Assembly: GCA_045837725.1 (NCBI GenBank)
Contig: JBEWZL010000309.1
Location: 1-64,000, forward strand
Direction: 5' to 3'
Length of the DNA stretch: 64,000 nucleotides
Origin: Vermamoeba vermiformis
Taxonomy: Eukaryota
Below are positions 1 through 63,304 of the stretch, piece after piece. Made by a program: the position numbers and the translations under genes. Numbering within the stretch: position 1 is the stretch's first letter; each line of letters begins with the position of its first letter. The notes under the pieces were generated by a model. It did not search any database. It saw only the letters and a program-made list of their open reading frames with translations, and had not been told where the DNA came from.

Positions 1-2780
1 GATCATAAATTATCCCTAATGGAAACAAGCTTCAAAAAACGCACCTACCACGACTTGAACATGAGTTTTCCCATAATAACTACTTTAACTAAAAAGATAA
101 AATAGAAAGGAATAAAACACTAAAGCAATGTGAAACATATGCTGATCATAAATTATCCCTAATGGAAACAAGCTTCAAAAAACGCACCTACCACGACTTG
201 AACATGAGTTTTCCCATAATAACTACTTTAACTAAAAAGATAAAATAGAAAGGAATAAAACACTAAAGCAATGTGAAACATATGCTGATCATAAATTATC
301 CCTAATGGAAACAAGCTTCAAAAAACGCACCTACCACGACTTGAACATGAGTTTTCCCATAATAACTACTTTAACTAAAAAGATAAAATAGAAAGGAATA
401 AAACACTAAAGCAATGTGAAACATATGCTGATCATAAATTATCCCTAATGGAAACAAGCTTCAAAAAACGCACCTACCACGACTTGAACATGAGTTTTCC
501 CATAATAACTACTTTAACTAAAAAGATAAAATAGAAAGGAATAAAACACTAAAGCAATGTGAAACATATGCTGATCATAAATTATCCCTAATGGAAACAA
601 GCTTCAAAAAACGCACCTACCACGACTTGAACATGAGTTTTCCCATAATAACTACTTTAACTAAAAAGATAAAATAGAAAGGAATAAAACACTAAAGCAA
701 TGTGAAACATATGCTGATCATAAATTATCCCTAATGGAAACAAGCTTCAAAAAACGCACCTACCACGACTTGAACATGAGTTTTCCCATAATAACTACTT
801 TAACTAAAAAGATAAAATAGAAAGGAATAAAACACTAAAGCAATGTGAAACATATGCTGATCATAAATTATCCCTAATGGAAACAAGCTTCAAAAAACGC
901 ACCTACCACGACTTGAACATGAGTTTTCCCATAATAACTACTTTAACTAAAAAGATAAAATAGAAAGGAATAAAACACTAAAGCAATGTGAAACATATGC
1001 TGATCATAAATTATCCCTAATGGAAACAAGCTTCAAAAAACGCACCTACCACGACTTGAACATGAGTTTTCCCATAATAACTACTTTAACTAAAAAGATA
1101 AAATAGAAAGGAATAAAACACTAAAGCAATGTGAAACATATGCTGATCATAAATTATCCCTAATGGAAACAAGCTTCAAAAAACGCACCTACCACGACTT
1201 GAACATGAGTTTTCCCATAATAACTACTTTAACTAAAAAGATAAAATAGAAAGGAATAAAACACTAAAGCAATGTGAAACATATGCTGATCATAAATTAT
1301 CCCTAATGGAAACAAGCTTCAAAAAACGCACCTACCACGACTTGAACATGAGTTTTCCCATAATAACTACTTTAACTAAAAAGATAAAATAGAAAGGAAT
1401 AAAACACTAAAGCAATGTGAAACATATGCTGATCATAAATTATCCCTAATGGAAACAAGCTTCAAAAAACGCACCTACCACGACTTGAACATGAGTTTTC
1501 CCATAATAACTACTTTAACTAAAAAGATAAAATAGAAAGGAATAAAACACTAAAGCAATGTGAAACATATGCTGATCATAAATTATCCCTAATGGAAACA
1601 AGCTTCAAAAAACGCACCTACCACGACTTGAACATGAGTTTTCCCATAATAACTACTTTAACTAAAAAGATAAAATAGAAAGGAATAAAACACTAAAGCA
1701 ATGTGAAACATATGCTGATCATAAATTATCCCTAATGGAAACAAGCTTCAAAAAACGCACCTACCACGACTTGAACATGAGTTTTCCCATAATAACTACT
1801 TTAACTAAAAAGATAAAATAGAAAGGAATAAAACACTAAAGCAATGTGAAACATATGCTGATCATAAATTATCCCTAATGGAAACAAGCTTCAAAAAACG
1901 CACCTACCACGACTTGAACATGAGTTTTCCCATAATAACTACTTTAACTAAAAAGATAAAATAGAAAGGAATAAAACACTAAAGCAATGTGAAACATATG
2001 CTGATCATAAATTATCCCTAATGGAAACAAGCTTCAAAAAACGCACCTACCACGACTTGAACATGAGTTTTCCCATAATAACTACTTTAACTAAAAAGAT
2101 AAAATAGAAAGGAATAAAACACTAAAGCAATGTGAAACATATGCTGATCATAAATTATCCCTAATGGAAACAAGCTTCAAAAAACGCACCTACCACGACT
2201 TGAACATGAGTTTTCCCATAATAACTACTTTAACTAAAAAGATAAAATAGAAAGGAATAAAACACTAAAGCAATGTGAAACATATGCTGATCATAAATTA
2301 TCCCTAATGGAAACAAGCTTCAAAAAACGCACCTACCACGACTTGAACATGAGTTTTCCCATAATAACTACTTTAACTAAAAAGATAAAATAGAAAGGAA
2401 TAAAACACTAAAGCAATGTGAAACATATGCTGATCATAAATTATCCCTAATGGAAACAAGCTTCAAAAAACGCACCTACCACGACTTGAACATGAGTTTT
2501 CCCATAATAACTACTTTAACTAAAAAGATAAAATAGAAAGGAATAAAACACTAAAGCAATGTGAAACATATGCTGATCATAAATTATCCCTAATGGAAAC
2601 AAGCTTCAAAAAACGCACCTACCACGACTTGAACATGAGTTTTCCCATAATAACTACTTTAACTAAAAAGATAAAATAGAAAGGAATAAAACACTAAAGC
2701 AATGTGAAACATATGCTGATCATAAATTATCCCTAATGGAAACAAGCTTCAAAAAACGCACCTACCACGACTTGAACATG
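1..2780. repeat. Tandem array of a 143-bp unit, 19.4 copies, truncated by the window edge; candidate mitochondrial telomere
   Basis: GATCATAAATTATCCC recurs at 1, 144, ... 1431, ... 2718 (period 143). Copies look identical by eye. Identity ends at 2780. Confidence 0.98.
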
Positions 2781-2829
2781 GAACCTCCACTTTCGAAGAG
2801 TGTTGCTCTACCAATTAAGCTATAGATGC
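2757..2829 (-). tRNA. trnR: tRNA-Arg(UCG)
   Basis: Acceptor GCATCTA/TAGGTGC, loop CT-TCG-AA, T-arm CCATG-TTCAAGT-CGTGG. The 3' 24 nt lie inside the last repeat unit. Confidence 0.9.
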
Positions 2830-2830
2830 A

Positions 2831-2918
2831 AGGGCAGAACGGGATTTGAACCCGTGTCAGGTTTTTGGCCTGAACTAATTTTCAAGAATAGCGCTTTAAA
2901 CCACTCAGCCATCTGCCC
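2831..2918 (-). tRNA. trnS: tRNA-Ser(UGA)
   Basis: Acceptor GGGCAGA/TCTGCCC, loop CT-TGA-AA, long variable arm. Confidence 0.92.
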
Positions 2919-2933
2919 TATCTATATATCTAT

Positions 2934-3016
2934 TGAGGAGGGCGGGATTCGAACCCGCGAAAACCGGAGTTAGTAGATTTACAGTCTACCGCCTTTGACC
3001 ACTCGGCCACCCCCTC
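2934..3016 (-). tRNA. trnY: tRNA-Tyr(GUA)
   Basis: GTAGA-CTGTAAA-TCTAC anticodon arm, long variable arm. Confidence 0.95.
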
Positions 3017-3026
3017 TTAATCATGA

Positions 3027-3107
3027 TGTGGGTAGTGGGAGTTGAACCCACAAGCTTTAGGCGCTACTTTCTAAAAATAGTGTGTTTACCAGTTTCACCA
3101 TACCCAC
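3027..3107 (-). tRNA. trnL: tRNA-Leu(UAG)
   Basis: Acceptor GTGGGTA/TACCCAC, loop TT-TAG-AA, variable arm. Confidence 0.92.
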
Positions 3108-3108
3108 A

Positions 3109-3182
3109 TAAGCCCGGAAGGATTTGAACCTTCATCGCAACCGTTATGAGCGGCGAATTTTAACCATTTAAACTACGGGCTC
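3109..3182 (-). tRNA. trnI: tRNA(CAU), probably the lysidine-type tRNA-Ile; copy 1
   Basis: CCG-CTCATAA-CGG anticodon arm resembles mitochondrial trnI(CAU). Two other CAU tRNAs cover the Met roles. Confidence 0.8.
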
Positions 3183-25604: not shown

Positions 25605-25655
<51 letters not shown>

Positions 25656-25669
25656 AACCTACTTCTGCT

Positions 25670-25704
<35 letters not shown>

Positions 25705-25921
25705 GATCCCGGCGATGAGGACTCTTGGGGATCATTAGCCTGTTATCCCTAGCGTACCTTTTATCCGTTGAGCGATGACTTTTCCACATAATATCACCGG
25801 ATCACTATGACCGACTTTCGTCCCTGTTTGGCGTGTCTGCCTAACAGTCAAGCAAACTTATACCATTGCGCTCTAAAGATTCAGAAAATCTTGAGTTTAC
25901 CTTTGCACGCCTCCGTTACTT

Positions 25922-25952
<31 letters not shown>

Positions 25953-26228
25953 AACCATGCATTGTCTTAAATATCAATTAGTTCAAAAAAAATAAAAGAA
26001 CACTATTTCATTGTTGCCTCAAAAATTGGCCGGAGCCAAGTTCTCATAGGCTAATGTCTATCCTACACATTTATTTTTCTTAAACAGTACAAAGGTGAAG
26101 TAAAGGTGCATAGGGTCTTTCCGTCTTGCTGCGAGTACTCCGCATCTTCACGAAGAATTCAATTTCGCTGAGTAGGTACTGGAGACAGTGGGGAAGTCGT
26201 TACACCATTCATGCGCGTCAGCAATTAA

Positions 26229-26268
<40 letters not shown>

Positions 26269-26322
26269 AGCCGCCGTTTACTGGGGCTTCAATTCTTGGC
26301 TTTAACCAATCCTTTTTACCTA

Positions 26323-26360
<38 letters not shown>

Positions 26361-28065
26361 ACGATTTAGCAGAGTCCTGTGTTTTTATTAAACAGTCGCT
26401 ACCCCCTATTCTGTGCCACCTTTCTAACTAGTATAAACCTTTAGATATTACTCTAAAAAGCTTTCATGTAAAAAAGGTACTCTTTCTCCCGAAGTTACAG
26501 AGTCATTTTGCCGAGTTCCTTCAATACCCTTCTCTCAGTCACCTTAGTATTCTCTACTTAACCACCTGTGTCGGTTTTCAGTACGGTTAAAACTACTAAT
26601 GTAATAGTAGTAAGTTTTAGTTATTTTGTAGTAAGTCATTTTAAATAGAATTCCAAATCTAAATGGAATTCTATTTAAAATGACTTACGTCACTAAAACT
26701 AGTTTGTAAATATTAATCACAAAACCCATTATATCAAATTATCATTTAATACTTAGGGGCCGACTAACTCTTCGTGGTAGAACCTAGCGAAGAAAACTTT
26801 GGTTATTCGGTGATAATGATTTTTAAAAACATTATTTGCGCTACTCATGTCAGCATACTTAAAACAGAAGGCTCGATTAAAACTTACATTTTAACTTCAA
26901 AGCGTACAGTTCATTCTACTACCAAAAAAATTAATCTGTAGTTTCGGTGTAAATCTATAAAACCTATTATTGTTGAAACTCTAAAACAAATTGTTAGTGA
27001 GCTGTTACGCTTTCTTTAAAGGATGGCTGCCTCTAAGCCAACCTGCTAACATTAAACGTAAAAGAGCAATCTTAATTATTTAGAATTAACTTCCGGACCT
27101 TAACTTACAAGAGGGGCTGTTCCCCTTTTGACCAACGAATCTTCGCACTCGCAGTCTGATTAAAGCGCTTAAAATTTAGTCATTCGGAGTTTCAATAAGT
27201 TCAAAATATTATTATCGAAATCCCTAGCTTATTTAGTGCTCTACCTACTAAATTTATAACACCTCACTCTACCTAAATAGATTTCGTAGAAAACCAGCTA
27301 TCACCAAGTTTGTTTAGCCTTTCACTCCTAACCACAAGTCATCCGCGTCTCTTTCAACAGACGTCGGTTCGGTCCTCCAATAGTGTATTACGCTACCTTC
27401 AACCTGCTCATGGTTAGATCACTTGGCTTCGGGTCTAATTTATCTAACTTAACGCTCTAATTAAAACTCGCTTTCGCTACACCTAAACTTAAAATTTTAA
27501 GTTTGCTAGATAAATTAAGTCGCTGACCCATTATGCAAAAGGTACGCCGTCACTTTACGCTCCGACTGCTATTTAGCCGTTAATTTCAGTATCTTTTAAA
27601 TTTTCTTTATGAATTTCTTTTTAACCGTTTCCCTCACGGTACTTGTTCGCTATCGGTAACTTATATTTTAAAGGCTTAGTAGGTGGTTCTACTTTATTCA
27701 GACAAAGTTTCACAGGCTTCGCCGTACTCATAATTAAAAAGGGGTTCCATAATACGGGGCATTCACCCTCTACGGCTCTAACAATTTCCAACTAGGTATT
27801 CTTATGGTAAACCCAAATTAAAAGACCTTATACAGTTTCGCTCACCACTACTACCGTATTCTCGATTGATTTCAACACTACAGGTACTGAGATGTTTCAC
27901 TTCCCTGCAGTCATTTTTATAAATTTATAAATTTCGTTTACAAAAATTGGAAAAATAAACTTTATTGACTCTTTAAAGCTCAGTCTATATTTTCGATATT
28001 AGTATCGTCCAAGAATAAGTTCCTAGGCATCCTTCAACGGCTTTGTCTAATGCTAGATCAAGTTT
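25300..28065 (-). rRNA. rnl: Large subunit rRNA (ends approximate)
   Basis: Conserved motifs GAAGTGAAACATCTCAGTACC, GGTAGCGAAATTCCTTGTC, GGGATAACAGGCT and GGCACCTCGATGTCGGCTC. Confidence 0.96.
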
Positions 28066-28083
28066 ATATACCAGCAATTGGTT

Positions 28084-28159
28084 TGACGGGGGAATGGATT
28101 TGAACCACCGACCTCCAAGTTATGAGCATGGCGAGCTAACCGGACTGCTCTACCCCGCC
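28084..28159 (-). tRNA. trnM: tRNA-Met(CAU), initiator-like (IR left)
   Basis: GGCGGGGTAGAGCAG...GCTCG D-arm of fMet type; loop CT-CAT-AA. Confidence 0.85.
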
Positions 28160-28169
28160 TTATTTGAGT

Positions 28170-28385
28170 TTAAATAAAACAACAAATAAAAATTAAAATA
28201 AATAAAGAAAATTTTAAATTTTCTTTAACTATTGTACTTAAATAAGAAAAATCTCTAAAATTTGAAAAAAGAAATAAAAAATAATCTTGAACCAAGTAAT
28301 AAAAACCAATTATAAACGGATACTCCAAATTATTAACGGAAAAAAAGTACAAAAAAGTATTAGCTAGGTACTTATAGTTTAGCAT
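28170..28385 (-). CDS. Small hydrophobic ORF (71 aa), possible divergent sdh4 (IR left)
   Basis: IIGFYYLVQDY resembles the Sdh4 G...DY motif; size fits; weak match. Confidence 0.4.
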   Translation of the reverse strand: MLNYKYLANTFLYFFSVNNLEYPFIIGFYYLVQDYFLFLFSNFRDFSYLSTIVKENLKFSLFILIFICCFI

Positions 28386-28418
28386 AAAAAAATATTAAAA
28401 ATCGTGATTAAAATAGTA

Positions 28419-28503
28419 TGCTCGCTATCGGACTTGAACCGATACTCTTCCAGAAAGAAATAAGTTTTGAGCCTATCGTGTCTACCAATTACACCAAGCG
28501 AGC
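28419..28503 (-). tRNA. trnL: tRNA-Leu(CAA) (IR left)
   Basis: ATAGG-CTCAAAA-CTTAT, variable arm. Confidence 0.92.
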
Positions 28504-28517
28504 TTATTTTTATTATT

Positions 28518-29132
28518 TTAGTAAAATCTTCAAAAATTTAAGTCATTTACAGGGCGATCTACCTGATCAGAAATTGACTGTTTCTTTGTATAAATGTAAG
28601 AGGACTCTGCAGAATTAGGAATATCTAATGTAAGCATAATACTACTTATCATAGCTAGTAATAACAAAATACCGGAAATTATTAAAAATGGACTAAAATA
28701 AGTGTACAAAACCAACCCTAATGATACAACATTTGAGTGGCTTAAAAAACTCTTATACCAGTCTACATAAAGTACAGTTGAATAACTATAACCGATAGAG
28801 AAATAAAGAGAAAAAACAATTTCAAAAAAAATTAAAAACCCTACAATAGTTGCTAGTGGAAAATATCTATTTAATATTTCACTTAACTCAACAACTCGTA
28901 TATTTAGCATCATAACAATAAAAAGAAATAAAACAGCAATAGCACCAACATAGACAATAATAAGAACCATGGCCAAAAAGTCGACTTCGAGTAAAACAAA
29001 CAACTGAGCGGATAAACAAAAAACAACTACAAGAAAAAGAACTGATTGAACAGGATTTTTCGAAAAAATCACAAGCAGCCCAGCTAAAAATATCATAACA
29101 GCCAAGCAAAGAAAAACAATGTCCGTCAACAT
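28518..29132 (-). CDS. nad6: NADH dehydrogenase subunit 6 (204 aa; IR left)
   Basis: KNPVQSVLFL and IIVYVGAIAVLFLFIVMMLN. Confidence 0.95.
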
Positions 29133-29142
29133 TAATGCTACG

Positions 29143-31191
29143 CTACCCTATATTTCCATGTTCCGAAATAAATAAAGAATAAAAACGCTTAAAAGCGATA
29201 TACTCTGCGACAACCCTTTCCTTATAAAATAAAAGCTCTGAAGAACTAATAAAAGCGGAATATACTAAAAAATCAGATAAAGACTTATACGAATCTCAAG
29301 TTTTATTGTTTATAGAGTTAATAATAAATAATTTATTCGAAAATACTACGCCATTATTAGATAAAAAAGATATTAAATATTCAATATAACCCGACTTTAA
29401 GTCCGGGGTACTTTGATCACCAGAAAAGAATTTTACCAAAAAAATTAATTTTTTTTGGTAAAGATTAAAAAGAGTCATAACATGACTACCATTAGTTCTA
29501 ATAAGCGGAAAAAAGTTTACCAAGAAAGAGTCATTTAAAGCTTGTTTGAAATCAGGTTTAAGCTGATCTAATGGATTTATATAGTTGTGGGAACCTCTTA
29601 TAACTTTACGGAATTTCCTCCGAAATTTATAAAAAAATAAAGGCAAAGTATTTAATTTTCAAGCAAAATTTAAAACTAAAAAGCTTCGAGAATCAATATA
29701 ATCAGGATGTTTAAAGTAATCGATATAGTAACGCTTGGTTGAAGGATAAAATAAATTCATATATGGGTAGACAACATATTCATGAAGTCGTTCATGTCAT
29801 TTAGGATCAAAGTGACCCATACGCTTTACAGGATAATCAGTTTGAATCCTCCAACCAGGGGTAAGGTAATCTATATTAAAATAAGTTTTATAGTAAGAAG
29901 CTTGAAGCTCAGTAAAAATTTCCTCATGAAATCAAGTCTTGTAAAACCAATGTATATTACTGCTATCAACATTGTTTAAATCAAAAAAAACCTCTTCACG
30001 CCGTTTATCCACAAACCTGGAAAAAAACAAAGGCACATGGTCCTCCCACCAAAGAACATCCTCTCAAGCCCAATGCTCATGAGGATAAGAATCTAAGCCC
30101 TTTTTCAAATTCCAGTAGGAAGGACGAAAAAATGAAAAATATGTTTTTAACTCGTCCCAACCCAATATTTCATCGTCAAGTCTAGAATAGAATATGTGAG
30201 CATACTTGGGGGTAGTAGATGAAAAAAAATTTTTTAAATACCTAAATTTGGTTCCATGAGAAAACTGGTTTGAATTGTAAGAATTTGAGAAGTAAGAAGG
30301 AAGACCAGTATTATTAGAATTAGAAACTGATTCTTTCAAAAGTCAAAAAATAAAAGTAAAATGTAATTGTAAATAGTTGTTAGATCGGAATATATTCATG
30401 AATTCCATTTCAGTAGGAGGGAGCTGAGCAGGCGTAAAAAAATTAGAGCTACGAGGATCAATTAATAAATCTGAGGAATTTGTATTTAAATAGTTATATT
30501 GCAATTGCTGTTTAGCTCAATACTTAAAACTCATACCAGGAGCCCTAAAAAGCCTAAATTCAAATTGTTCGGTCCTGCGTCATCTTAAATAAAAATTACG
30601 CATATTTCTTCTAGCAAAAAGCCATTTTTTTTTACGTAAAGGAAACCAACTATTTAAGGCCATAAAGTTTAATTTTCGAAGTCTAATTAAATTTCTATGG
30701 GCTTCAAAAGTATAGTAATACTTTAGGGCCTTATAATCATTATAGCGAACATATTTTCAACTACTAGTTACGTATTCATGAACATGCTGCGCATTTTTCT
30801 TCGTTTCATGTCGACGTACGGATTCATTTAGTAACGAAAGATAACTAAAAAAAGCCGGTGATTTAGAAACATTAACGGTATTGATTTCAAAAATGTTATT
30901 AATAAAAATTTCAAAAGTCGATAAAAAATTGTAACCCTCAAAACTATAAATAGAATTATTTTTAATTTGTCTTTTGGACCTTAGTTTATTCGTCCTCTCT
31001 GGATCTCTTCGACCAGACCCAGACGGAAATCAATAATAAAAAGAATTTGATTTATCTATAAAAGACAGTTTCTTTAAACTGTACATTTTAGAAAGACTAA
31101 ATTTAGATTTATAAAGTTCCTTATTTATATAATCTAAATAAAGATTAACAGAATTCGGATCAAAATCCAGCATACAAAACAACATATACAT
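29143..31191 (-). CDS. Unassigned ORF (682 aa; IR left)
   Basis: Mirror of 58436-60484; open when TGA is read as Trp. Confidence 0.83.
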
Positions 31192-31207
31192 ATATTATTA
31201 TAAAAAA

Positions 31208-31281
31208 CACGCCCTACAGGAATTGAACCTGTAACCGTTGGCTTAGGAGGCCAGCGCTCTATCCAATTAAGCTAAGGGCGC
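31208..31281 (-). tRNA. trnR: tRNA-Arg(CCU) (IR left)
   Basis: TGGC-CTCCTAA-GCCA. Confidence 0.92.
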
Positions 31282-31283
31282 TA

Positions 31284-31355
31284 AGGTCAGAAACGGACTT
31301 GAACCGTTACCAAAAAATTTGCAGTTTTCTGCACTACCAGTTATGCTATCTGACC
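31284..31355 (-). tRNA. trnC: tRNA-Cys(GCA) (IR left)
   Basis: GGTCAGA/TCTGACC-T, loop CT-GCA-AA. Confidence 0.92.
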
Positions 31356-31738
31356 TAAGCAACAGCAACAGCCGCCCCTCAAATAAGATGTGAAGATAAG
31401 AAAAGTACTGATAGTATAATTAGCAACAAGGAAAAATTGAAAAAAAATTTGAAAAAAGAAACCAAATCTATATCTAAATAGTTTATATTTATCTCGTCAT
31501 AATCTATAAAATCCTCGCCCAACGATGAAATTATATAGAAAGCTACAATAAACTCTGATATAAAAATTATGTCCAAAAAATAACAATATAAAAATTCACT
31601 AAAAATACTAAAAGAAAAAACTGAAAAAATAAAATTAATAAATACAGCTACCAATACAAAACGTAAAAATAATGAAAAAGTAGAATTAGTTTGAGGTTTA
31701 TAAACAAGAATATGCGGTGAATATAATTTTGAACTCAT
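31355..31738 (-). CDS. sdh3: Divergent succinate dehydrogenase subunit 3 (127 aa; IR left)
   Basis: N-terminal SPHILVYKPQTNSTFSLFLR matches the Sdh3 SPHLxIYxPQxTSxxSIxHR pattern. Confidence 0.7.
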
Positions 31739-31740
31739 AT

Positions 31741-32421
31741 TTAATAATGGGGTGAATGAACTTTTTTATACTTTATATATTTTGACATACCAGCAAGTCT
31801 GCCTAGTAGTATAGATTTAGAAACTGTAATAGAACAAAATGTTATAGAGCTCACCGCATCATCATTACCAGGTAATGGATATAAGATATTGCTAGTATCA
31901 ACAGTAGAATCTGATAGGGAAAATATGGGTAAGTTTATAGTTCTGGCTTCTTGGTAAGGTAGAATACTATTACTAACATTAAAAGTAAAAACAGCGGTTG
32001 GAAGTCGAGTAGCACCTCTTAAGTTTTGCATGAATTCTTGGCTTCAAGTTCCAATAAAGGAGCCCTTTTTAAAATCAGGAATTTTCCTTAAAAAAACGAA
32101 TTTTCAATTAGTCAACAAACCACCTCGTCATTTATTCAAAATCATAGGTTGCTGAATGATGTTATTCATCCTATAAAGTAAGTAGTTTAAAGCTGGGTCT
32201 AAATTGACGAAAAGTACAGAGCCAAATTTTGATGATAATCGAGACAATGACAAACAAGCTTTCTTCCAAAAAAACACAGCCTTTGCAGGAGAAATAATTA
32301 ATGTAGAATAACGAACACCAAAAATGTATCACGTTGAAAAATTACTGCTTTGAGTTAAGGGATGTCCAATATGAACAGCGTTATATATAAGCTGCGAAAA
32401 TTTTAATTTTACAATTTTCAT
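31741..32421 (-). CDS. rps2: Ribosomal protein S2 (226 aa; IR left)
   Basis: AVHIGH, WRGGLLTNW and YPLPGNDD. Confidence 0.9.
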
Positions 32422-32453
32422 AACTATAGAATAAATATTACAAATGATAAAAA

Positions 32454-32702
32454 TTAACCGTAAAGGATTAAAAAAGCTATCATGATGGCCAAAAGACCCA
32501 TAGCTTCAGTTAGGGCGAAACCTAAAATAGCGTATCGAAATAACTCAGCACGGATCATTTCATTGCGGGCTGCAGCGTTCATATAACCTGAGAAAACAAC
32601 ACCAATACCCATACCTGCTCCAGCAACACCGATGGTAGCTAAACCAGCACCGATAAATTTCGCTGAAGTGGTTAAAGAAGCAAAAAATACAGAATTTTCC
32701 AT
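32454..32702 (-). CDS. atp9: ATP synthase subunit 9 (IR left)
   Basis: [18 protein letters not shown] and LGFALTEA. Confidence 0.97.
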
Positions 32703-32755
32703 ATTTAATTAAAAATAATAAATTTTATCTTTTTAAATTAGACAAATTTGACACG

Positions 32756-32829
32756 CATGCTTGAAAGGACTTGAACCTTTAACCTTTAAATTCGCAACTT
32801 AACGCTCTAACCAATTGAGCTACAAGCAT
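32756..32829 (-). tRNA. trnR: tRNA-Arg(GCG) (IR left)
   Basis: TTAAG-TTGCGAA-TTTAA; acceptor ATGCTTG/CAAGCAT. Confidence 0.88.
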
Positions 32830-32832
32830 AAT

Positions 32833-32905
32833 AGGCGAAGGTGAGAATTGAACTCACGACACTTGGATTATGATTCCAAAGTTCTACCAACTAAACTACT
32901 TCGCC
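32833..32905 (-). tRNA. trnM: tRNA-Met(CAU), elongator-like (IR left)
   Basis: TTGGA-ATCATAA-TCCAA. Confidence 0.85.
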
Positions 32906-32907
32906 CG

Positions 32908-32981
32908 TAGGCCCGGATGGAATTGAACCATCAACCTCGCACTTATCAGATGCGCGCTCTAACCAATTGAGCTACAGGCCC
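32908..32981 (-). tRNA. trnI: tRNA-Ile(GAU) (IR left)
   Basis: CGCAT-CTGATAA-GTGCG. Confidence 0.94.
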
Positions 32982-32986
32982 ACGAA

Positions 32987-33059
32987 TAGGCACACGGGGA
33001 CTCGAACCCCGAACCCTTGGATTAAGAGACCACTGCTCTACCAATTAAGCTATGCACCC
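32987..33059 (-). tRNA. trnK: tRNA-Lys(CUU) (IR left)
   Basis: Loop CT-CTT-AA; acceptor GGGTGCA/TGTGCCT. Confidence 0.9.
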
Positions 33060-33071
33060 TAAATAAAAAAA

Positions 33072-34567
33072 ATTGGTCCAGCCGCAGGTTCCCCTACGAC
33101 TACCCTGTTACGACTTCGCACCAGTCCTTAGCTTTAATGTTATAAGCAGTAATTTTAATCTATATAAATTTGTGAAAAAAATTGCTTAACAAAAAAAACT
33201 TAAGAATTATAATCCTCTACTTATGTCAACCAAAACTAATTTCCAGCGCGTGACGGGCGGTGTGTACTAGGGCTGAGGGGGTATTCACCGTACCATTCTG
33301 ATATACGATTACTAGCGATTCCAACTTCATGTATCCAATTTTCAGGGTACAATCTGAACTGAGATACGTTTTTTGAGAATTGCTAAAATTTACATTTTTG
33401 CTTCCCTTTGTACGTACCATTGTAGCACGTGAGTAGCCCAGCCCATAAAGGTCATAACGACTTGACATCATCCCTGCCTTCCTCTTAGATTTCCTAAGCA
33501 GTAAACTTATATATAAGTTAAGGGGTTGCGCCCGTTAAAGGAGTTAACCTAACATCTCAAAACACGAGCTGACGACAGCCATGCAACACCTGTGTAGGTC
33601 AATACTCATTAACAATAAATGAGCATAATTTTAACTAAAAAATTTTAAACCTACTTATCAAGAGCTGGTAAGGTTTTACGCGGTATATCGGATTAAACCA
33701 CATGCTCCACCGCTGAAATAGCCCTCCGTCAATTCCTTTAAGTTTGAACCTTGCGGTTGTAGTTCCCAGGCGGAATACTTACGCGTTAGCTTAAATACCC
33801 CCTTACGGTTAGGAGCATTTAGTATTCATCGGTCACTGCATAGACTACCGGGGTCTCTAATCCCGTTTGCTACCTATGCTTTTGCGCTATAGTGTCAGTT
33901 TATAGTAGAAAGTCGCTTTCGCCCGTAGACTGTCCTTCTAATTTTTGCAAATTTCACCTCTACACTAGAAGTACAACTTTCTTCAAATAAACTCAAGCGC
34001 GGCCGTATTTTTAAGGACCTCAAATTATGTTTGAGTATTTAAAAAAAAACGTACCACACCACCTTCACGCCCTTCACGCCCAGTCAAGTTGAGTAACACT
34101 AGCCCCCTCCGTTTTACCGCGGCTGCTGGCACGAAGTTAGCCGGGGCTTCTTTTTCGAATACTGTCATTATCATCTTCGACGAAAGGATTTTACAATCTA
34201 AGCCTTCCTCACCCACGCGGCATTGCTGGATCAAGCTTTCGCCCATTGTCCAATATTCCTCACTGCTGCCAAAAAGTTCGGGATGTAACCGTCCCGCTGT
34301 GGCTGATAGTCCTCCAAGACCAGCTAAGGATCGTAGGCTTGGTAGGCTAAGCCCACTACCAACTACCTAATCCTATACAAATATGTCTATTAAGCGAGAA
34401 ATCTTTAATAACTAAAGTAAGTTAAAATATTTAGTATTAGCTAAACTTAATATACACAATTTGTACGTTACTCACCAATACGCCATGAAATAATTTAATT
34501 CCATACGACTTGCATGTGTAAGGCATACCGCTAGCATTCACTCAGAGCCAGGATCAAACTCTTAATT
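33072..34567 (-). rRNA. rns: Small subunit rRNA (IR left; ends approximate)
   Basis: AGAGTTTGATCCTGGCTC, GTGCCAGCAGCCGCGGTAA and AAGTCGTAACA. Confidence 0.97.
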
Positions 34568-34632
34568 GTTTTATTAATCTACTTAAATAGATTAACATAT
34601 ATGGATCTTTTATTGAAACTGAATCAAAAAGA

Positions 34633-34707
34633 CGAGGGCGATGGGATTTGAACCCACACCTTCTAACATGACAAGCTAGCGTTCTAACCAGTTAGCACTA
34701 CGCCCCC
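34633..34707 (-). tRNA. trnD: tRNA-Asp(GUC) (IR left)
   Basis: CTAGC-TTGTCAT-GTTAG. Confidence 0.92.
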
Positions 34708-34731
34708 AGCTTATATATATATTATTTAACA

Positions 34732-34820
34732 TGCCCGCTGACGGACTTGAACCGTCACCTCCGCTTATAAGAAAGAACAGATTTTAAGTCTGTCGTGTCT
34801 ACCAATTTCACCAAGCGGGC
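34732..34820 (-). tRNA. trnL: tRNA-Leu(UAA) (IR left)
   Basis: ACAGA-CTTAAAA-TCTGT, variable arm. Confidence 0.94.
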
Positions 34821-34841
34821 AAAATAAAAGAAAAAGAGATA

Positions 34842-34915
34842 CGCTCCGGATTGGGATTGAACCAATAACCTCACGGTTAACAGCCGAGCGCTCTAGCCAA
34901 TTGAGCTACCGGAGC
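34842..34915 (-). tRNA. trnN: tRNA-Asn(GUU) (IR left)
   Basis: CGG-CTGTTAA-CCG. Confidence 0.93.
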
Positions 34916-34952
34916 ATTATTTAGCTATATTTTAATACAAACTCAAACCTAA

Positions 34953-35025
34953 TACGCCCTATGGGACTTGAACCCATATATTTGCCGTGAAAGAGCAACA
35001 TCCTAGCCTATTAGATGAAGAGCGC
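34953..35025 (-). tRNA. trnE: tRNA-Glu(UUC) (IR left)
   Basis: TTGCT-CTTTCAC-GGCAA. Confidence 0.93.
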
Positions 35026-35072
35026 AATAACCACAAACCTAACCTTTAAAAAAACAGGTAACTTAATACAAC

Positions 35073-35145
35073 CTGGGGTAGTAGGAATTGAACCTACGCA
35101 TGGTGCATCCAAAGTGCACTGCCTTACCGACTTGGCTATACCCCA
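35073..35145 (-). tRNA. trnQ: tRNA-Gln(UUG) (IR left)
   Basis: GTGCA-CTTTGGA-TGCAC. Confidence 0.94.
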
Positions 35146-35155
35146 ACCTGAAATT

Positions 35156-35254
35156 ATTAAAAAAATATAATTTGATATTATAATGGCACTTTTATTAATT
35201 TATCATTCAAATTAATAAAAGTGCCATTATAATATCAAATTATATTTTTTTAAT
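35156..35254. repeat. Hairpin with 46-bp perfect arms and a 7-nt loop between trnH and trnQ (mirror at 54373-54471)
   Basis: 35156-35201 is the reverse complement of 35209-35254. Confidence 0.95.
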
Positions 35255-35291
35255 TTCAATAAAAAGTACAACTTAAAAAACTTTAATAGAA

Positions 35292-35365
35292 GGCGAGTAA
35301 TGGGACTCGAACCCACAGCCTCTACAGTCACAACGTATTGCTCCACCTATTGAGCTATACCCGCC
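35292..35365 (-). tRNA. trnH: tRNA-His(GUG) (IR left)
   Basis: Loop TT-GTG-AC; G-1 and C73 are encoded. Confidence 0.92.
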
Positions 35366-35376
35366 TATTATTAATA

Positions 35377-35657
35377 CTACTTATTAAAATAATAAGAATA
35401 CCAATACTGCATTAAGAAGCGTTCAAAACTATTCAAAACTGGTAATATTAATAAAAAGTAAGCAAAATAAAAAACTGTAGCAAATTGACCAATTTCATAG
35501 TAAGGTGCTTCAATTGGCTTACCACCTATCCAACCCAGAACCAGACAATCCACAACAAAAACCCAAAACAAAACTTTAGAAAAAGTTCTAAATAATAAAC
35601 TCCTAATAGCAACTTTCAAGTAAAGTGGTAATAATAATAAAACTACTATAGAAGATA
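35377..35657 (-). pseudogene. cob: Duplicated 3' fragment of cob at the IR inner boundary
   Basis: Mirror of 53970-54250; lacks the 5' three quarters of the gene. Confidence 0.92.
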
Positions 35658-35925
35658 TTATATAGTATATCTTATTATATAGTATATCTTATTATATAGT
35701 ATATCTTATTATATAGTATATCTTATTATATAGTATATCTTATTATATAGTATATCTTATTATATAGTATATCTTATTATATAGTATATCTTATTATATA
35801 GTATATCTTATTATATAGTATATCTTATTATATAGTATATCTTATTATATAGTATATCTTATTATATAGTATATCTTATTATATAGTATATCTTATTATA
35901 TAGTATATCTTATTATATAGTATAT
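35656..35925. repeat. 17-bp tandem array (TATTATATAGTATATCT, about 16 copies) closed by an inverted 34-bp arm at 35921-35954
   Basis: Period 17 read directly; 35921-35954 is the reverse complement of 35648-35681. Confidence 0.96.
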
Positions 35926-53083: not shown

Positions 53084-54250
53084 ATGCGATTAGTTAACAA
53101 AAATGTTATATTATTATTTATTTATAGGTTTGGCTTTAACTATCCAGCACCTTTTAATTTAAGTTATTTTTGAAATTTTGGTTCGTTAGCGTTGCTTTGT
53201 TTAGTTTTCCAACTTCTTACTGGTATTTTTTTAGCTATGCACTATACTCCACATGTTGATATGGCGTTTGCGAGTGTAGAGCATATAATGCGTGATGTGA
53301 ATTACGGTTGATTCTTACGTTATTTACATGCTAATGGCGCCTCTATGTTTTTTATAGTTGTTTATATCCATGTTTTTAGGGGTTTATACTATAATTCATT
53401 TACTTATCCTCGTCAATGATTGTGGTTTACTGGTGTGGTTATATTATTATTAATGATATTAACTGCATTCTTGGGTTATGTTCTTCCTTGAGGCCAAATG
53501 AGTTTTTGAGCTGCTACGGTTATTACAAATCTGTTATCGGTAGTCCCTTTTGTTGGTACGGATTTAGTATATTGATTATGGGGTGGTTTTGCTGTCGATA
53601 ATGCTACTTTAAATCGTTTTTTTAGTTTACATTATCTTTTACCTTTTGTTATTTTAGCTCTTTCGTTTATTCATTTAATTTTTTTACATGAATTTGGATC
53701 GAATAACCCTTTAGGTATAGCTTTGAAGGCCGATTTTATCCCCTTTACTCCTTATTATACTATTAAAGATTTGTTTGGTGTAATATTATTTCTTATTTTT
53801 GCGGGTTCTTTTATTTATTTTGCTCCTAATTATTTAGGTCACCCAGATAATTATATTTTAGCTAATCCTTTAGTAACCCCTACTCATATAGTCCCAGAAT
53901 GGTATTTTTTGCCTTTTTACGCAATTTTACGTTCTATTCCTGATAAGTTGATGGGGGTTATAGCTCTTTTATCTTCTATAGTAGTTTTATTATTATTACC
54001 ACTTTACTTGAAAGTTGCTATTAGGAGTTTATTATTTAGAACTTTTTCTAAAGTTTTGTTTTGGGTTTTTGTTGTGGATTGTCTGGTTCTGGGTTGGATA
54101 GGTGGTAAGCCAATTGAAGCACCTTACTATGAAATTGGTCAATTTGCTACAGTTTTTTATTTTGCTTACTTTTTATTAATATTACCAGTTTTGAATAGTT
54201 TTGAACGCTTCTTAATGCAGTATTGGTATTCTTATTATTTTAATAAGTAG
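53084..54250 (+). CDS. cob: Apocytochrome b (388 aa)
   Basis: [24 protein letters not shown] and [17 protein letters not shown]. Confidence 0.98.
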
Positions 54251-54261
54251 TATTAATAATA

Positions 54262-54335
54262 GGCGGGTATAGCTCAATAGGTGGAGCAATACGTTGTGAC
54301 TGTAGAGGCTGTGGGTTCGAGTCCCATTACTCGCC
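54262..54335 (+). tRNA. trnH: tRNA-His(GUG) (IR right)
   Basis: Mirror of 35292-35365. Confidence 0.92.
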
Positions 54336-54481
54336 TTCTATTAAAGTTTTTTAAGTTGTACTTTTTATTGAAATTAAAAAAATATAATTTGATATTATAA
54401 TGGCACTTTTATTAATTTGAATGATAAATTAATAAAAGTGCCATTATAATATCAAATTATATTTTTTTAATAATTTCAGGT

Positions 54482-54554
54482 TGGGGTATAGCCAAGTCGG
54501 TAAGGCAGTGCACTTTGGATGCACCATGCGTAGGTTCAATTCCTACTACCCCAG
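54482..54554 (+). tRNA. trnQ: tRNA-Gln(UUG) (IR right)
   Basis: Mirror of 35073-35145. Confidence 0.94.
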
Positions 54555-54601
54555 GTTGTATTAAGTTACCTGTTTTTTTAAAGGTTAGGTTTGTGGTTAT
54601 T

Positions 54602-54674
54602 GCGCTCTTCATCTAATAGGCTAGGATGTTGCTCTTTCACGGCAAATATATGGGTTCAAGTCCCATAGGGCGTA
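54602..54674 (+). tRNA. trnE: tRNA-Glu(UUC) (IR right)
   Basis: Mirror of 34953-35025. Confidence 0.93.
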
Positions 54675-54711
54675 TTAGGTTTGAGTTTGTATTAAAATAT
54701 AGCTAAATAAT

Positions 54712-54785
54712 GCTCCGGTAGCTCAATTGGCTAGAGCGCTCGGCTGTTAACCGTGAGGTTATTGGTTCAATCCCAATCCGGAGCG
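54712..54785 (+). tRNA. trnN: tRNA-Asn(GUU) (IR right)
   Basis: Mirror of 34842-34915. Confidence 0.93.
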
Positions 54786-54806
54786 TATCTCTTTTTCTTT
54801 TATTTT

Positions 54807-54895
54807 GCCCGCTTGGTGAAATTGGTAGACACGACAGACTTAAAATCTGTTCTTTCTTATAAGCGGAGGTGACGGTTCAAGTCCGTCAGCGGGCA
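54807..54895 (+). tRNA. trnL: tRNA-Leu(UAA) (IR right)
   Basis: Mirror of 34732-34820. Confidence 0.94.
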
Positions 54896-54919
54896 TGTTA
54901 AATAATATATATATAAGCT

Positions 54920-54994
54920 GGGGGCGTAGTGCTAACTGGTTAGAACGCTAGCTTGTCATGTTAGAAGGTGTGGGTTCAAATCCCATCGCCCTCG
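54920..54994 (+). tRNA. trnD: tRNA-Asp(GUC) (IR right)
   Basis: Mirror of 34633-34707. Confidence 0.92.
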
Positions 54995-55059
54995 TCTTTT
55001 TGATTCAGTTTCAATAAAAGATCCATATATGTTAATCTATTTAAGTAGATTAATAAAAC

Positions 55060-56555
55060 AATTAAGAGTTTGATCCTGGCTCTGAGTGAATGCTAGCGGT
55101 ATGCCTTACACATGCAAGTCGTATGGAATTAAATTATTTCATGGCGTATTGGTGAGTAACGTACAAATTGTGTATATTAAGTTTAGCTAATACTAAATAT
55201 TTTAACTTACTTTAGTTATTAAAGATTTCTCGCTTAATAGACATATTTGTATAGGATTAGGTAGTTGGTAGTGGGCTTAGCCTACCAAGCCTACGATCCT
55301 TAGCTGGTCTTGGAGGACTATCAGCCACAGCGGGACGGTTACATCCCGAACTTTTTGGCAGCAGTGAGGAATATTGGACAATGGGCGAAAGCTTGATCCA
55401 GCAATGCCGCGTGGGTGAGGAAGGCTTAGATTGTAAAATCCTTTCGTCGAAGATGATAATGACAGTATTCGAAAAAGAAGCCCCGGCTAACTTCGTGCCA
55501 GCAGCCGCGGTAAAACGGAGGGGGCTAGTGTTACTCAACTTGACTGGGCGTGAAGGGCGTGAAGGTGGTGTGGTACGTTTTTTTTTAAATACTCAAACAT
55601 AATTTGAGGTCCTTAAAAATACGGCCGCGCTTGAGTTTATTTGAAGAAAGTTGTACTTCTAGTGTAGAGGTGAAATTTGCAAAAATTAGAAGGACAGTCT
55701 ACGGGCGAAAGCGACTTTCTACTATAAACTGACACTATAGCGCAAAAGCATAGGTAGCAAACGGGATTAGAGACCCCGGTAGTCTATGCAGTGACCGATG
55801 AATACTAAATGCTCCTAACCGTAAGGGGGTATTTAAGCTAACGCGTAAGTATTCCGCCTGGGAACTACAACCGCAAGGTTCAAACTTAAAGGAATTGACG
55901 GAGGGCTATTTCAGCGGTGGAGCATGTGGTTTAATCCGATATACCGCGTAAAACCTTACCAGCTCTTGATAAGTAGGTTTAAAATTTTTTAGTTAAAATT
56001 ATGCTCATTTATTGTTAATGAGTATTGACCTACACAGGTGTTGCATGGCTGTCGTCAGCTCGTGTTTTGAGATGTTAGGTTAACTCCTTTAACGGGCGCA
56101 ACCCCTTAACTTATATATAAGTTTACTGCTTAGGAAATCTAAGAGGAAGGCAGGGATGATGTCAAGTCGTTATGACCTTTATGGGCTGGGCTACTCACGT
56201 GCTACAATGGTACGTACAAAGGGAAGCAAAAATGTAAATTTTAGCAATTCTCAAAAAACGTATCTCAGTTCAGATTGTACCCTGAAAATTGGATACATGA
56301 AGTTGGAATCGCTAGTAATCGTATATCAGAATGGTACGGTGAATACCCCCTCAGCCCTAGTACACACCGCCCGTCACGCGCTGGAAATTAGTTTTGGTTG
56401 ACATAAGTAGAGGATTATAATTCTTAAGTTTTTTTTGTTAAGCAATTTTTTTCACAAATTTATATAGATTAAAATTACTGCTTATAACATTAAAGCTAAG
56501 GACTGGTGCGAAGTCGTAACAGGGTAGTCGTAGGGGAACCTGCGGCTGGACCAAT
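55060..56555 (+). rRNA. rns: Small subunit rRNA (IR right; ends approximate)
   Basis: Universal SSU motifs; mirror of the left copy. Confidence 0.97.
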
Positions 56556-56567
56556 TTTTTTTATTTA

Positions 56568-56640
56568 GGGTGCATAGCTTAATTGGTAGAGCAGTGGTCT
56601 CTTAATCCAAGGGTTCGGGGTTCGAGTCCCCGTGTGCCTA
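56568..56640 (+). tRNA. trnK: tRNA-Lys(CUU) (IR right)
   Basis: Mirror of 32987-33059. Confidence 0.9.
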
Positions 56641-56645
56641 TTCGT

Positions 56646-56719
56646 GGGCCTGTAGCTCAATTGGTTAGAGCGCGCATCTGATAAGTGCGAGGTTGATGGT
56701 TCAATTCCATCCGGGCCTA
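56646..56719 (+). tRNA. trnI: tRNA-Ile(GAU) (IR right)
   Basis: Mirror of 32908-32981. Confidence 0.94.
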
Positions 56720-56721
56720 CG

Positions 56722-56794
56722 GGCGAAGTAGTTTAGTTGGTAGAACTTTGGAATCATAATCCAAGTGTCGTGAGTTCAATTCTCACCTTCGCCT
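56722..56794 (+). tRNA. trnM: tRNA-Met(CAU), elongator-like (IR right)
   Basis: Mirror of 32833-32905. Confidence 0.85.
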
Positions 56795-56797
56795 ATT

Positions 56798-56871
56798 ATG
56801 CTTGTAGCTCAATTGGTTAGAGCGTTAAGTTGCGAATTTAAAGGTTAAAGGTTCAAGTCCTTTCAAGCATG
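56798..56871 (+). tRNA. trnR: tRNA-Arg(GCG) (IR right)
   Basis: Mirror of 32756-32829. Confidence 0.88.
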
Positions 56872-56924
56872 CGTGTCAAATTTGTCTAATTTAAAAAGAT
56901 AAAATTTATTATTTTTAATTAAAT

Positions 56925-57173
56925 ATGGAAAATTCTGTATTTTTTGCTTCTTTAACCACTTCAGCGAAATTTATCGGTGCTGGTTTAGCTACCATCGGTG
57001 TTGCTGGAGCAGGTATGGGTATTGGTGTTGTTTTCTCAGGTTATATGAACGCTGCAGCCCGCAATGAAATGATCCGTGCTGAGTTATTTCGATACGCTAT
57101 TTTAGGTTTCGCCCTAACTGAAGCTATGGGTCTTTTGGCCATCATGATAGCTTTTTTAATCCTTTACGGTTAA
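56925..57173 (+). CDS. atp9: ATP synthase subunit 9 (IR right)
   Basis: Identical to the left copy. Confidence 0.97.
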
Positions 57174-57205
57174 TTTTTATCATTTGTAATATTTATTCTA
57201 TAGTT

Positions 57206-57886
57206 ATGAAAATTGTAAAATTAAAATTTTCGCAGCTTATATATAACGCTGTTCATATTGGACATCCCTTAACTCAAAGCAGTAATTTTTCAACGTGATA
57301 CATTTTTGGTGTTCGTTATTCTACATTAATTATTTCTCCTGCAAAGGCTGTGTTTTTTTGGAAGAAAGCTTGTTTGTCATTGTCTCGATTATCATCAAAA
57401 TTTGGCTCTGTACTTTTCGTCAATTTAGACCCAGCTTTAAACTACTTACTTTATAGGATGAATAACATCATTCAGCAACCTATGATTTTGAATAAATGAC
57501 GAGGTGGTTTGTTGACTAATTGAAAATTCGTTTTTTTAAGGAAAATTCCTGATTTTAAAAAGGGCTCCTTTATTGGAACTTGAAGCCAAGAATTCATGCA
57601 AAACTTAAGAGGTGCTACTCGACTTCCAACCGCTGTTTTTACTTTTAATGTTAGTAATAGTATTCTACCTTACCAAGAAGCCAGAACTATAAACTTACCC
57701 ATATTTTCCCTATCAGATTCTACTGTTGATACTAGCAATATCTTATATCCATTACCTGGTAATGATGATGCGGTGAGCTCTATAACATTTTGTTCTATTA
57801 CAGTTTCTAAATCTATACTACTAGGCAGACTTGCTGGTATGTCAAAATATATAAAGTATAAAAAAGTTCATTCACCCCATTATTAA
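57206..57886 (+). CDS. rps2: Ribosomal protein S2 (IR right)
   Basis: AVHIGH, WRGGLLTNW and PGNDD. Confidence 0.9.
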
Positions 57887-57888
57887 AT

Positions 57889-58272
57889 ATGAGTTCAAAA
57901 TTATATTCACCGCATATTCTTGTTTATAAACCTCAAACTAATTCTACTTTTTCATTATTTTTACGTTTTGTATTGGTAGCTGTATTTATTAATTTTATTT
58001 TTTCAGTTTTTTCTTTTAGTATTTTTAGTGAATTTTTATATTGTTATTTTTTGGACATAATTTTTATATCAGAGTTTATTGTAGCTTTCTATATAATTTC
58101 ATCGTTGGGCGAGGATTTTATAGATTATGACGAGATAAATATAAACTATTTAGATATAGATTTGGTTTCTTTTTTCAAATTTTTTTTCAATTTTTCCTTG
58201 TTGCTAATTATACTATCAGTACTTTTCTTATCTTCACATCTTATTTGAGGGGCGGCTGTTGCTGTTGCTTAG
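57889..58272 (+). CDS. sdh3: Divergent succinate dehydrogenase subunit 3 (IR right)
   Basis: SPHILVYKPQ motif; reads through the TGA at 58246 to TAG at 58270. Confidence 0.7.
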
Positions 58273-58343
58273 GTCAGATAGCATAACTGGTAGTGCAGAA
58301 AACTGCAAATTTTTTGGTAACGGTTCAAGTCCGTTTCTGACCT
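58272..58343 (+). tRNA. trnC: tRNA-Cys(GCA) (IR right)
   Basis: Mirror of 31284-31355. Confidence 0.92.
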
Positions 58344-58345
58344 TA

Positions 58346-58419
58346 GCGCCCTTAGCTTAATTGGATAGAGCGCTGGCCTCCTAAGCCAACGGTTACAGGT
58401 TCAATTCCTGTAGGGCGTG
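58346..58419 (+). tRNA. trnR: tRNA-Arg(CCU) (IR right)
   Basis: Mirror of 31208-31281. Confidence 0.92.
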
Positions 58420-58435
58420 TTTTTTATAATAATAT

Positions 58436-60484: not shown

Positions 60485-60494
60485 CGTAGCATTA

Positions 60495-61109: not shown

Positions 61110-61123
61110 AATAATAAAAATAA

Positions 61124-63266: not shown

Positions 63267-63304
<38 letters not shown>

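Follow-up and report, generated by a model that had tools for sequence, protein, structure and literature searches.

The 64,000-nt stretch of Vermamoeba vermiformis DNA analysed here (the window: positions 1 to 64,000 of the forward strand of contig JBEWZL010000309.1, GenBank assembly GCA_045837725.1) opens with a tandem array that runs directly into the gene for tRNA-Arg(UCG), trnR(UCG). Tandem Repeats Finder delineates a 143-bp unit over positions 1-2780, in 19.4 (19.44) copies with 100% matches and 0% indels; when positions 1 to 2717 are divided into blocks of 143 nt, all 19 blocks are identical base for base, and the 20th diverges from the unit at offset 63, that is, at position 2781. ARAGORN places tRNA-Arg(tcg) on the minus strand at 2756-2830, and the Rfam tRNA model scores 60.7 bits on 2757-2829, compared to a cut-off of 29. 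The initial annotation had proposed that this gene takes its final 24 nt from the innermost repeat unit and that the fragment occurs 20 times, and both observations are borne out: positions 2757-2780 (minus strand) are identical to a piece of the unit, and the corresponding 24-mer (the reverse complement of 2757-2780) is found 20 times at a spacing of 143, with starts from 40 to 2757, and 0 times on the opposite strand. This recurrence cannot be due to chance because the 24-mer is itself part of the repeated unit. The edge of the array also lies where it had been placed, inside the T-stem: the 5' strand of this stem in trnR reads CCAUG, and the match to the unit starts at its second base, as judged from a cloverleaf reading compared with the Rfam tRNA alignment of the homologous trnR in a related contig (L001, see below). 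The portion of the tRNA that is common to the unit thus encompasses four of the five bases of the T-stem 5' strand, the T-loop, the T-stem 3' strand, the acceptor 3' strand and the discriminator. Physically, the 3' end of trnR is the first, partial repeat unit.

Table 1. Positions in the window of the array, the adjoining tRNA genes and the inverted repeat
Feature	Positions	Strand	Basis
Tandem array, 143-bp unit x 19.44, identical copies, continuing past the window start	1..2780	-	Repeat finding and block comparison
5' portion of a 20th probable hveRNA gene copy, interrupted by the window start	1..37	-	Array periodicity; without an Rfam match of its own
19 tRNA-derived 24-mers (40-63 ... 2614-2637)	40..2637	-	Periodicity and Rfam alignment
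19 complete 124-nt probable hveRNA genes (57-180, 200-323, ... 2488-2611, 2631-2754)	57..2754	-	Rfam, covariation
20th 24-mer, the real 3' end of trnR(UCG)	2757..2780	-	ARAGORN, Rfam, block comparison
trnR(UCG), final tRNA gene of the leftward block; present in L001 and L002 as well	2757..2829	-	ARAGORN, Rfam
tRNA cluster trnS(UGA), trnY, trnL(UAG), trnM, upstream of trnR	2830..3182	-	ARAGORN, Rfam
Inverted-repeat arm A (rnl, rns, tRNAs, 281-nt cob 3' fragment); may reach outward to the array	25627..35657	.	Self-comparison
Perfect array of 17-bp units (x 15.9), bordering arm A on the inside, between diverging gene blocks	35656..35925	.	Repeat finding
Inverted-repeat arm B, 100% complementary to arm A, passing the window end	53970..64000	.	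Self-comparison

So what is the bulk of the unit, outside the tRNA-derived piece? Every complete unit (19/19) matches the Rfam family RF02555 (hveRNA, the mitochondrial 5S-like RNA of Hartmannella vermiformis) on the minus strand over the full length of the model, 1-124 of 124, at 76 bits and an E value of 2e-12. These matches came from an E-value-based Rfam scan; the default Rfam scan is blank across the array, which was overlooked in default annotation because its copies score under the Rfam cut-off. The unit is made up of a 124-nt RNA gene and a 19-nt spacer, the first 7 nt of the 24-mer (CAUGUUC) being the 3' tail of the RNA gene and the remaining 17 nt, together with TT, forming the spacer. 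The hveRNA model starts at 2754, 2 nt past the trnR discriminator (2757), on the strand of all genes in the left arm of the window. A scan of positions 2781-64000 with Rfam at E <= 0.01 gave neither an hveRNA nor a 5S match, so that the array contains the sole hveRNA copies in the window; the canonical 5S rRNA families have no match in 2350-2850 at E <= 10. The array holds all 19 occurrences of a conserved 20-mer from the unit, and there are none elsewhere in the window even when up to 3 mismatches are allowed. A promoter and terminator scan of 2400-3400 yielded 2 and 1 sites, respectively, compared to 3.0 and 0.8 expected. We are fairly confident that the array is a tandemly amplified mitochondrial gene for the 5S-like rRNA (hveRNA), located behind trnR, which arose by local duplication and is subject to concerted evolution.

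The RNA family as such is already known. Bullerwell et al. 2010 (Eukaryot Cell 9:762) reportedly described abundant 5S rRNA-like mitochondrial transcripts in Amoebozoa, which is said to be the source of the hveRNA family, with an abundant small RNA that co-sediments with mitoribosomes reportedly serving as the family criterion. Expressed '5S-like RNA' loci that are missed by mt-5S models are on record for six amoebozoan mitochondrial DNAs (mtDNAs), and the available portions of the same report mention neither Hartmannella nor tandem repeats nor telomeres (Valach et al. 2014; PMC4267664). In a literature search that did not extend to Bullerwell et al. 2010, where they would most likely be mentioned, the tandem amplification, the conserved tRNA-derived spacer and the placement at the edge of a large inverted repeat were nowhere described.

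The 24-mer search retrieved two metagenome contigs, L001 and L002, which represent lineages ~20% diverged from the window in coding genes; the same search of genome-contig and viral-contig collections gave 0 and 0 loci. With the nad1 protein as the query, there were 3 pattern matches among viral contigs, 0 of them confirmed, and 577 of the 583 candidates among genome contigs were confirmed, with the best 80 all at <=61% identity and under bacterial titles, and with no mitochondrial relative recognised. Both L001 and L002 show the order trnM-trnL-trnY-trnS-trnR followed by the repeat, with the array edge at the identical base: in 3/3 lineages, CATG is followed by GAACCT at the gene and by AGTTTT within the array. 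The unit is 140 nt long in L001 and 143 nt in L002, and both units match hveRNA over 1-124 of 124 (72.3 bits, E 3.2e-11, and 82.1 bits, E 2.1e-13, respectively). Neighbouring copies within one array are identical also in these contigs, over 55/55 nt in L001 and 127/127 nt in L002.

Table 2. Identity of L001 and L002 to the window
Region	L001	L002
nad4L	79.5%	82.2%
nad1	outside coverage	81.7%
nad11	outside coverage	72.1%
tRNA genes	95-100%	94-100%
Spacer trnS-trnY	5/14	5/14
Spacer trnY-trnL	5/8	3/8
Spacer trnM-nad4L	23.8%	15.6%
Unit, 119 non-tRNA nt	79.8%	85.8%
Unit, tRNA-derived 24-mer	24/24	24/24

The unit is conserved as genes rather than spacers are: its identity between lineages resembles that of coding genes and exceeds that of spacers (Table 2). 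Variant units are present in the Logan contigs of sequencing runs X5, X9 and X15, with 16 substituted positions and 3 indels, all within 2646-2738 and none in the covered tRNA-derived stretches. Because the same junction is found in two lineages ~20% diverged, the arrangement of trnR and the array is old rather than the outcome of a recent amplification; no empty site at trnR was found, the array occupying the same junction in 3/3 lineages available. As a separate observation on trnR itself, the anticodon-stem pair 27-43 is A-U in L001 (172-244) and an A-G mismatch in both the window (2757-2829) and L002.

The three lineages can also be compared at the level of the predicted RNA structure. For this purpose, they were placed on the RF02555 model by its gap positions. 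In this structure alignment, standard pairs occupy 77 of the 93 pair cells, and 6 of the 31 pairs have changed in both partners (helix II has three of these pairs, helix I two and helix IV one). When the 3' partners are slid by 1-3 columns, there are 35-46 standard cells and 0-1 doubly changed pairs, and shuffling the partners 2000 times never produced as many as 6. This pattern suggests that the helices of the model are kept between lineages, with compensatory changes.

These observations can be accommodated by a simple chain of events. Ancestrally, trnR would have had a single 5S-like gene behind it. Slippage or unequal recombination would then have duplicated, in tandem, the stretch between one breakpoint in the trnR T-stem and another where the RNA gene ends, generating the first repeat, and the array would have grown through unequal exchange. 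Under this scenario, the innermost '24 nt of repeat' would be nothing other than the original 3' end of the tRNA. Unequal crossing-over or gene conversion would hold the copies in one genome identical, and selection, exerted via homogenisation on the RNA fold as well as the 3' end of the tRNA, would conserve the unit between lineages. The tRNA scrap would reproduce the upstream context of the first copy for every RNA copy; given that the 5' end of the first copy would adjoin the RNase Z cut site of tRNA 3' processing, the scrap may act as a processing signal, and the additional gene copies would raise the dose of the reportedly abundant 5S-like RNA.

Several points weigh against this interpretation. 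The hveRNA scores, at 72-82 bits, fall below the curated 90-bit cut-off, so by the rule of Rfam the units are not family members, and the covariation alignment was fitted to the model structure, which biases it towards that structure, with only three sequences. The duplication origin is a reconstruction rather than an observed event, considering that no relative with a single-copy arrangement was found among the lineages recovered. The modelled 3' tail of the RNA (CUCAUGUUC) extends into the tRNA-derived piece, which a simple duplication does not predict for the ancestral single copy. The units show no tRNA-like fold, as the Rfam tRNA model at E <= 10 in 2350-2850 and ARAGORN with default settings on the array region both detect trnR only; canonical RNase Z recognition of the internal copies is therefore doubtful, and maturation of RNA from copies beyond the innermost one is putative. 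Folded as single-stranded DNA, the unit is no better than shuffled sequences (z = -1.10, -1.58 and 0.01). Relaxed ARAGORN (metazoan-mt mode, 80% threshold) made 15 overlapping calls in 692 nt, which we took as noise. The contigs of an RNA-library run, X15, contain the unit and the unit-to-unit joint, which by itself is no indication of transcription.

The setting of the array is a mitochondrial genome. Long, tightly packed reading frames appear in the window only when TGA is read as Trp. Pfam recognises genes of the respiratory chain (nad1, 2, 3, 4, 4L, 5, 6, 7, 9 and 11, cox1-3 and cob), of the ATP synthase (atp1, 4, 6 and 8) and of translation (tufA, rpl19 and many further ribosomal protein genes), and the RNA genes include 39 for tRNAs, with rns and rnl each present twice. 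Both tufA and rpl19 have been reported from Hartmannella mtDNA, according to a note to Table 2 of the available part of the source (PMC3590771). Sequencing runs with this DNA sampled hot-spring, aquifer and bioreactor material as well as biofilm and water (20 of the 24 listed rows, 15 studies). Together with the name of the Rfam family and the use of TGA for Trp, this points to the Vermamoeba (Hartmannella) vermiformis complex, or a close relative, as the most likely origin of the genome. The window includes an inverted repeat, 25627-35657 and 53970-64000, that is 100% identical over 10,031 nt, a length limited by the window end; the single-copy region between the arms spans 18.3 kb. Both junctions of the repeat lie within the window: the cob 3' fragment meets a 17-bp tandem array at 35657/35658, and the intact cob passes into arm B at 53969/53970. 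Genes lie without exception on the minus strand to the left of ~35.7 kb and on the plus strand to the right, so that the 143-bp array comes last, farthest downstream, in the leftward gene block. The array borders a large inverted-repeat arm of the mitochondrial genome on its outer side, a telomere-like position that the end of a linear mtDNA would occupy. The initial annotation had called the array terminal, which applies to the window, where the array continues past base 1.

Could the repeat have been acquired rather than duplicated in place? The initial annotation envisaged that a 143-bp circle or unit recombined at the 3' end of the tRNA and was amplified, giving a tRNA-anchored telomere on which the gene now depends. 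Spelled out, a telomeric element, such as a 143-bp circle, would have joined trnR and been amplified by the rolling-circle route, leaving the tRNA reliant on a foreign 3' end. The location of the array at the window edge and on the outer side of the inverted-repeat arm is compatible with this scenario, as is the fact that three assemblies end within the array; the 24-mer bounds every unit, as expected of an insert at a tRNA 3' end, and in run X1 the unit forms a closed 173-nt (143+30) contig, although any tandem array yields such a contig. However, 124 of the 143 nt of the presumed insert are a conserved, structured, resident RNA gene that is co-oriented with trnR, shows compensatory changes and has no second copy in the window. 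The unit lacks integration or replication functions of its own: its longest stop-free frames are 45-51 codons, none exceeding 51, and a short-word BLAST search against the rest of the window reveals no similarity >18 nt. Moreover, the junction is identical in lineages ~20% diverged, with no trace of a recent or mobile event, and local duplication accounts for the same facts with one step fewer. We have to conclude that capture of a circle is highly improbable. The repeat is mainly an amplified gene rather than a tRNA-derived telomere, and the tRNA scrap amounts to the 19-nt spacer with the final 7 nt of the RNA gene.

A different question is whether the amplified 5S-like gene array is also the physical end of the DNA, which we consider a serious possibility that nevertheless falls somewhat short of being probable. 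A more elaborate and rather tentative version would posit a linear genome of ~90 kb with 35-kb terminal inverted repeats and telomeres that consist of arrays of the 5S-like gene: these arrays would be the sole source of the RNA, would boost its dose where a 33-kb transcription unit ends and would form expendable ends renewed by recombination, with the tRNA-Arg scrap serving as punctuation for release. Alternatively, and in our estimate improbably, the telomere came first: the array would mainly buffer linear ends, only the innermost RNA gene being used and the rest being passengers homogenised by the recombination that maintains the ends. The array does lie outside an inverted-repeat arm with 100% identity over all 10,031 nt within the window; the 51,040-nt contig from which L002 derives stops in the array, at a length close to the ~51.2 kb that one arm and the single-copy region add up to in the window; and the rough depth ratio of unit to flank contigs, which is not a copy number, differs between runs, with 122.8 vs 9.34 in X1 (~13x) and 75.7 vs 12 in X9 (~6x), compared to 19.4 copies in the window. 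Yet contigs stop at any long repeat and list neither molecule ends nor read-level free ends, and the conservation data do not discriminate, as homogenisation could constrain the whole unit even if one copy matters. Loose contig ends at 2805, 2876, 2975 and 3011-3013 fall within tRNA genes and were read as the tRNA genes of other organisms, and the contigs of X1 leave 3248-5000 uncovered, to which we attach no meaning. The literature search produced no relevant paper on a 143-bp mitochondrial telomere repeat, and nowhere was Vermamoeba mtDNA found to be described as linear or as having terminal inverted repeats. A further possibility, one that we would not favour, is an internal array in a circular-mapping genome of ~51-54 kb (one arm and the single-copy region, with genes on one strand), where the array abuts the non-coding region upstream of atp1; the second inverted arm would then stem from assembly, from a rearrangement specific to the strain or from an isomeric form of the genome, and the array would be an amplified gene cluster only. 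Such a map agrees with a 2020 review (PMC7194472), which in its available part gives amoebozoan mitogenomes a circular form, a size of 29-58 kb and genes that lie mostly or entirely on a single strand, and the single 51,040-nt contig is compatible with it as well; the inner edge of arm A (35657) meets the near-palindromic 17-bp array, and the motif ATATCTTCTAT is found in cob too, which makes this region prone to recombination or misjoining. Nonetheless, both junctions of a true inverted repeat with 100% identical arms are in the window, a simple fold-back artefact would also duplicate the single-copy region, and the mitochondrial contig of a long-read V. vermiformis assembly, given as 61.7 or 67.1 kb with no structure described in the available part of the preprint (10.1101/2021.04.23.440484), exceeds one arm plus the single-copy region. 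Finally, the identity and number of the copies might reflect consensus polishing of a collapsed repeat, the true array being shorter, longer or heterogeneous. Repeat polishing does yield 100% identity over 19 copies, and variant and canonical units occur together in runs X5, X9 and X15, possibly from other strains; however, run X1 has one variant-free 173-nt unit contig with all the depth, neighbouring copies are identical in L001 and L002 too, and the argument bears on copy number alone, not on the identity of the unit. We find this explanation quite unlikely.

The region at the inner edge of arm A deserves a separate description. The 17-bp array (TATTATATAGTATATCT) is located exactly at this edge (35635-35967), with its last unit inverted and ~28-nt inverted repeats flanking it; the array is near-palindromic, and the motif ATATCTTCTAT appears both in cob (from 53969) and beside the array (from 35944). 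One possible reading of this region is an origin or promoter; another is a recombination site that fixed the repeat boundary. Arm A carries a truncated cob copy at 35377-35657, its last 281 nt; the 3' end of cob is duplicated because the boundary of the inverted repeat (53970) lies inside cob (53069-54250).

Other features of the window are noted here in their own right. Two identical trnM(CAU) copies, 3109-3182 and 12054-12127, are on one strand of the left arm, 9 kb apart. There is one trnW only (37972-38044), with the anticodon CCA, compared to far more than 100 in-frame TGA codons that need Trp; the reading of TGA as Trp with this sole tRNA implies anticodon modification, editing or an imported tRNA. 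A 69-nt inverted repeat, 100% complementary, surrounds trnP (23976-24050) at 23914-24114 and overlaps both of its ends, which could permit inversion of trnP. Several palindromes of 80-100 nt, perfect or nearly so, are embedded in long unassigned frames (orf913 and orf830) at 21689-21786, 46822-47010, 47497-47579 and 48014-48118; some of them give weak matches to plant microRNA hairpin families, which we took as chance, and they resemble in-frame hairpin insertions. Five long frames (961, 913, 558, 682 and 830 aa with TGA as Trp), within 16525-23814, 29143-31191 and 46600-49092, have no Pfam match. The cox2 product, of 490 aa, has a long insert that separates the transmembrane and periplasmic domains. 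The 'spacer' between rpl19 and nad2 (7309-7565) is 76.7% identical to L002, far above other spacers, and may hide a small gene.

In practical terms, the default Rfam scan leaves 2.8 kb as an 'anonymous repeat' even though the only ribosomal-type RNA gene copies of this kind in the window sit there. In evolutionary terms, the array would make a clear-cut natural example of concerted evolution in organellar DNA, with identity within a genome, ~15-20% divergence and compensatory changes between lineages, and the 3' end of trnR tied in. If the array does prove to be a physical end, this would be a mitochondrial telomere composed of working genes, and amoebozoan mitogenomes would not be uniformly circular and one-stranded, contrary to the relevant part of the 2020 review (PMC7194472).

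Among known systems, the closest counterpart is hveRNA of Hartmannella vermiformis itself, with which the array has in common a full-length match in each unit, the four-helix shape with compensatory changes, encoding in mtDNA and a genome with tufA and rpl19; the difference is in the scores, 72-82 bits compared to the 90-bit cut-off, which suggests that the units come from diverged lineages. In animal mtDNA control regions, tandem duplications take in part of a tRNA gene, and tRNA punctuation and plant mitochondrial t-elements serve as RNA-processing signals. As in the former, the breakpoint lies within a tRNA gene and the fragment is repeated in each unit; as in the latter, the 5' end of an RNA adjoins the 3' end of a tRNA. 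Here, by contrast, the repeated partner is most probably a functional rRNA-like gene, and the tRNA fragment shows 100% conservation between lineages and, taken alone, no detectable tRNA-like fold. With regard to the ends, the linear mtDNA of Tetrahymena has telomere units of 31-53 bp and a terminal inverted repeat with rnl, and yeasts of the Candida parapsilosis type have mitochondrial telomere units of 738 bp and t-circles. The resemblance consists in a perfect array at the outer end of an rRNA-bearing inverted arm, homogeneous within a genome and diverged between lineages; the units of those telomeres are non-coding, whereas here 124 of the 143 nt would be a structured RNA gene, and the array is known from assembled contigs alone. 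Among linear mtDNAs with large inverted repeats, those of Palpitomonas bilix, Proteromonas lacertae and Acavomonas peruviana likewise have a single-copy region between gene-bearing arms, as far as the available portions of the report go (PMC5174734); this region is ~16 kb in P. bilix (PMC5174734) vs 18.3 kb in the window. According to the same portions, P. bilix differs in its standard code, its ccm genes and the lack of detected terminal repeats (PMC5174734), whereas the window needs TGA as Trp and is amoebozoan-like; on account of its code and ccm genes, P. bilix was rejected as the source of the window. In A. peruviana, telomere-like tandem repeats are described there as well (PMC5174734).

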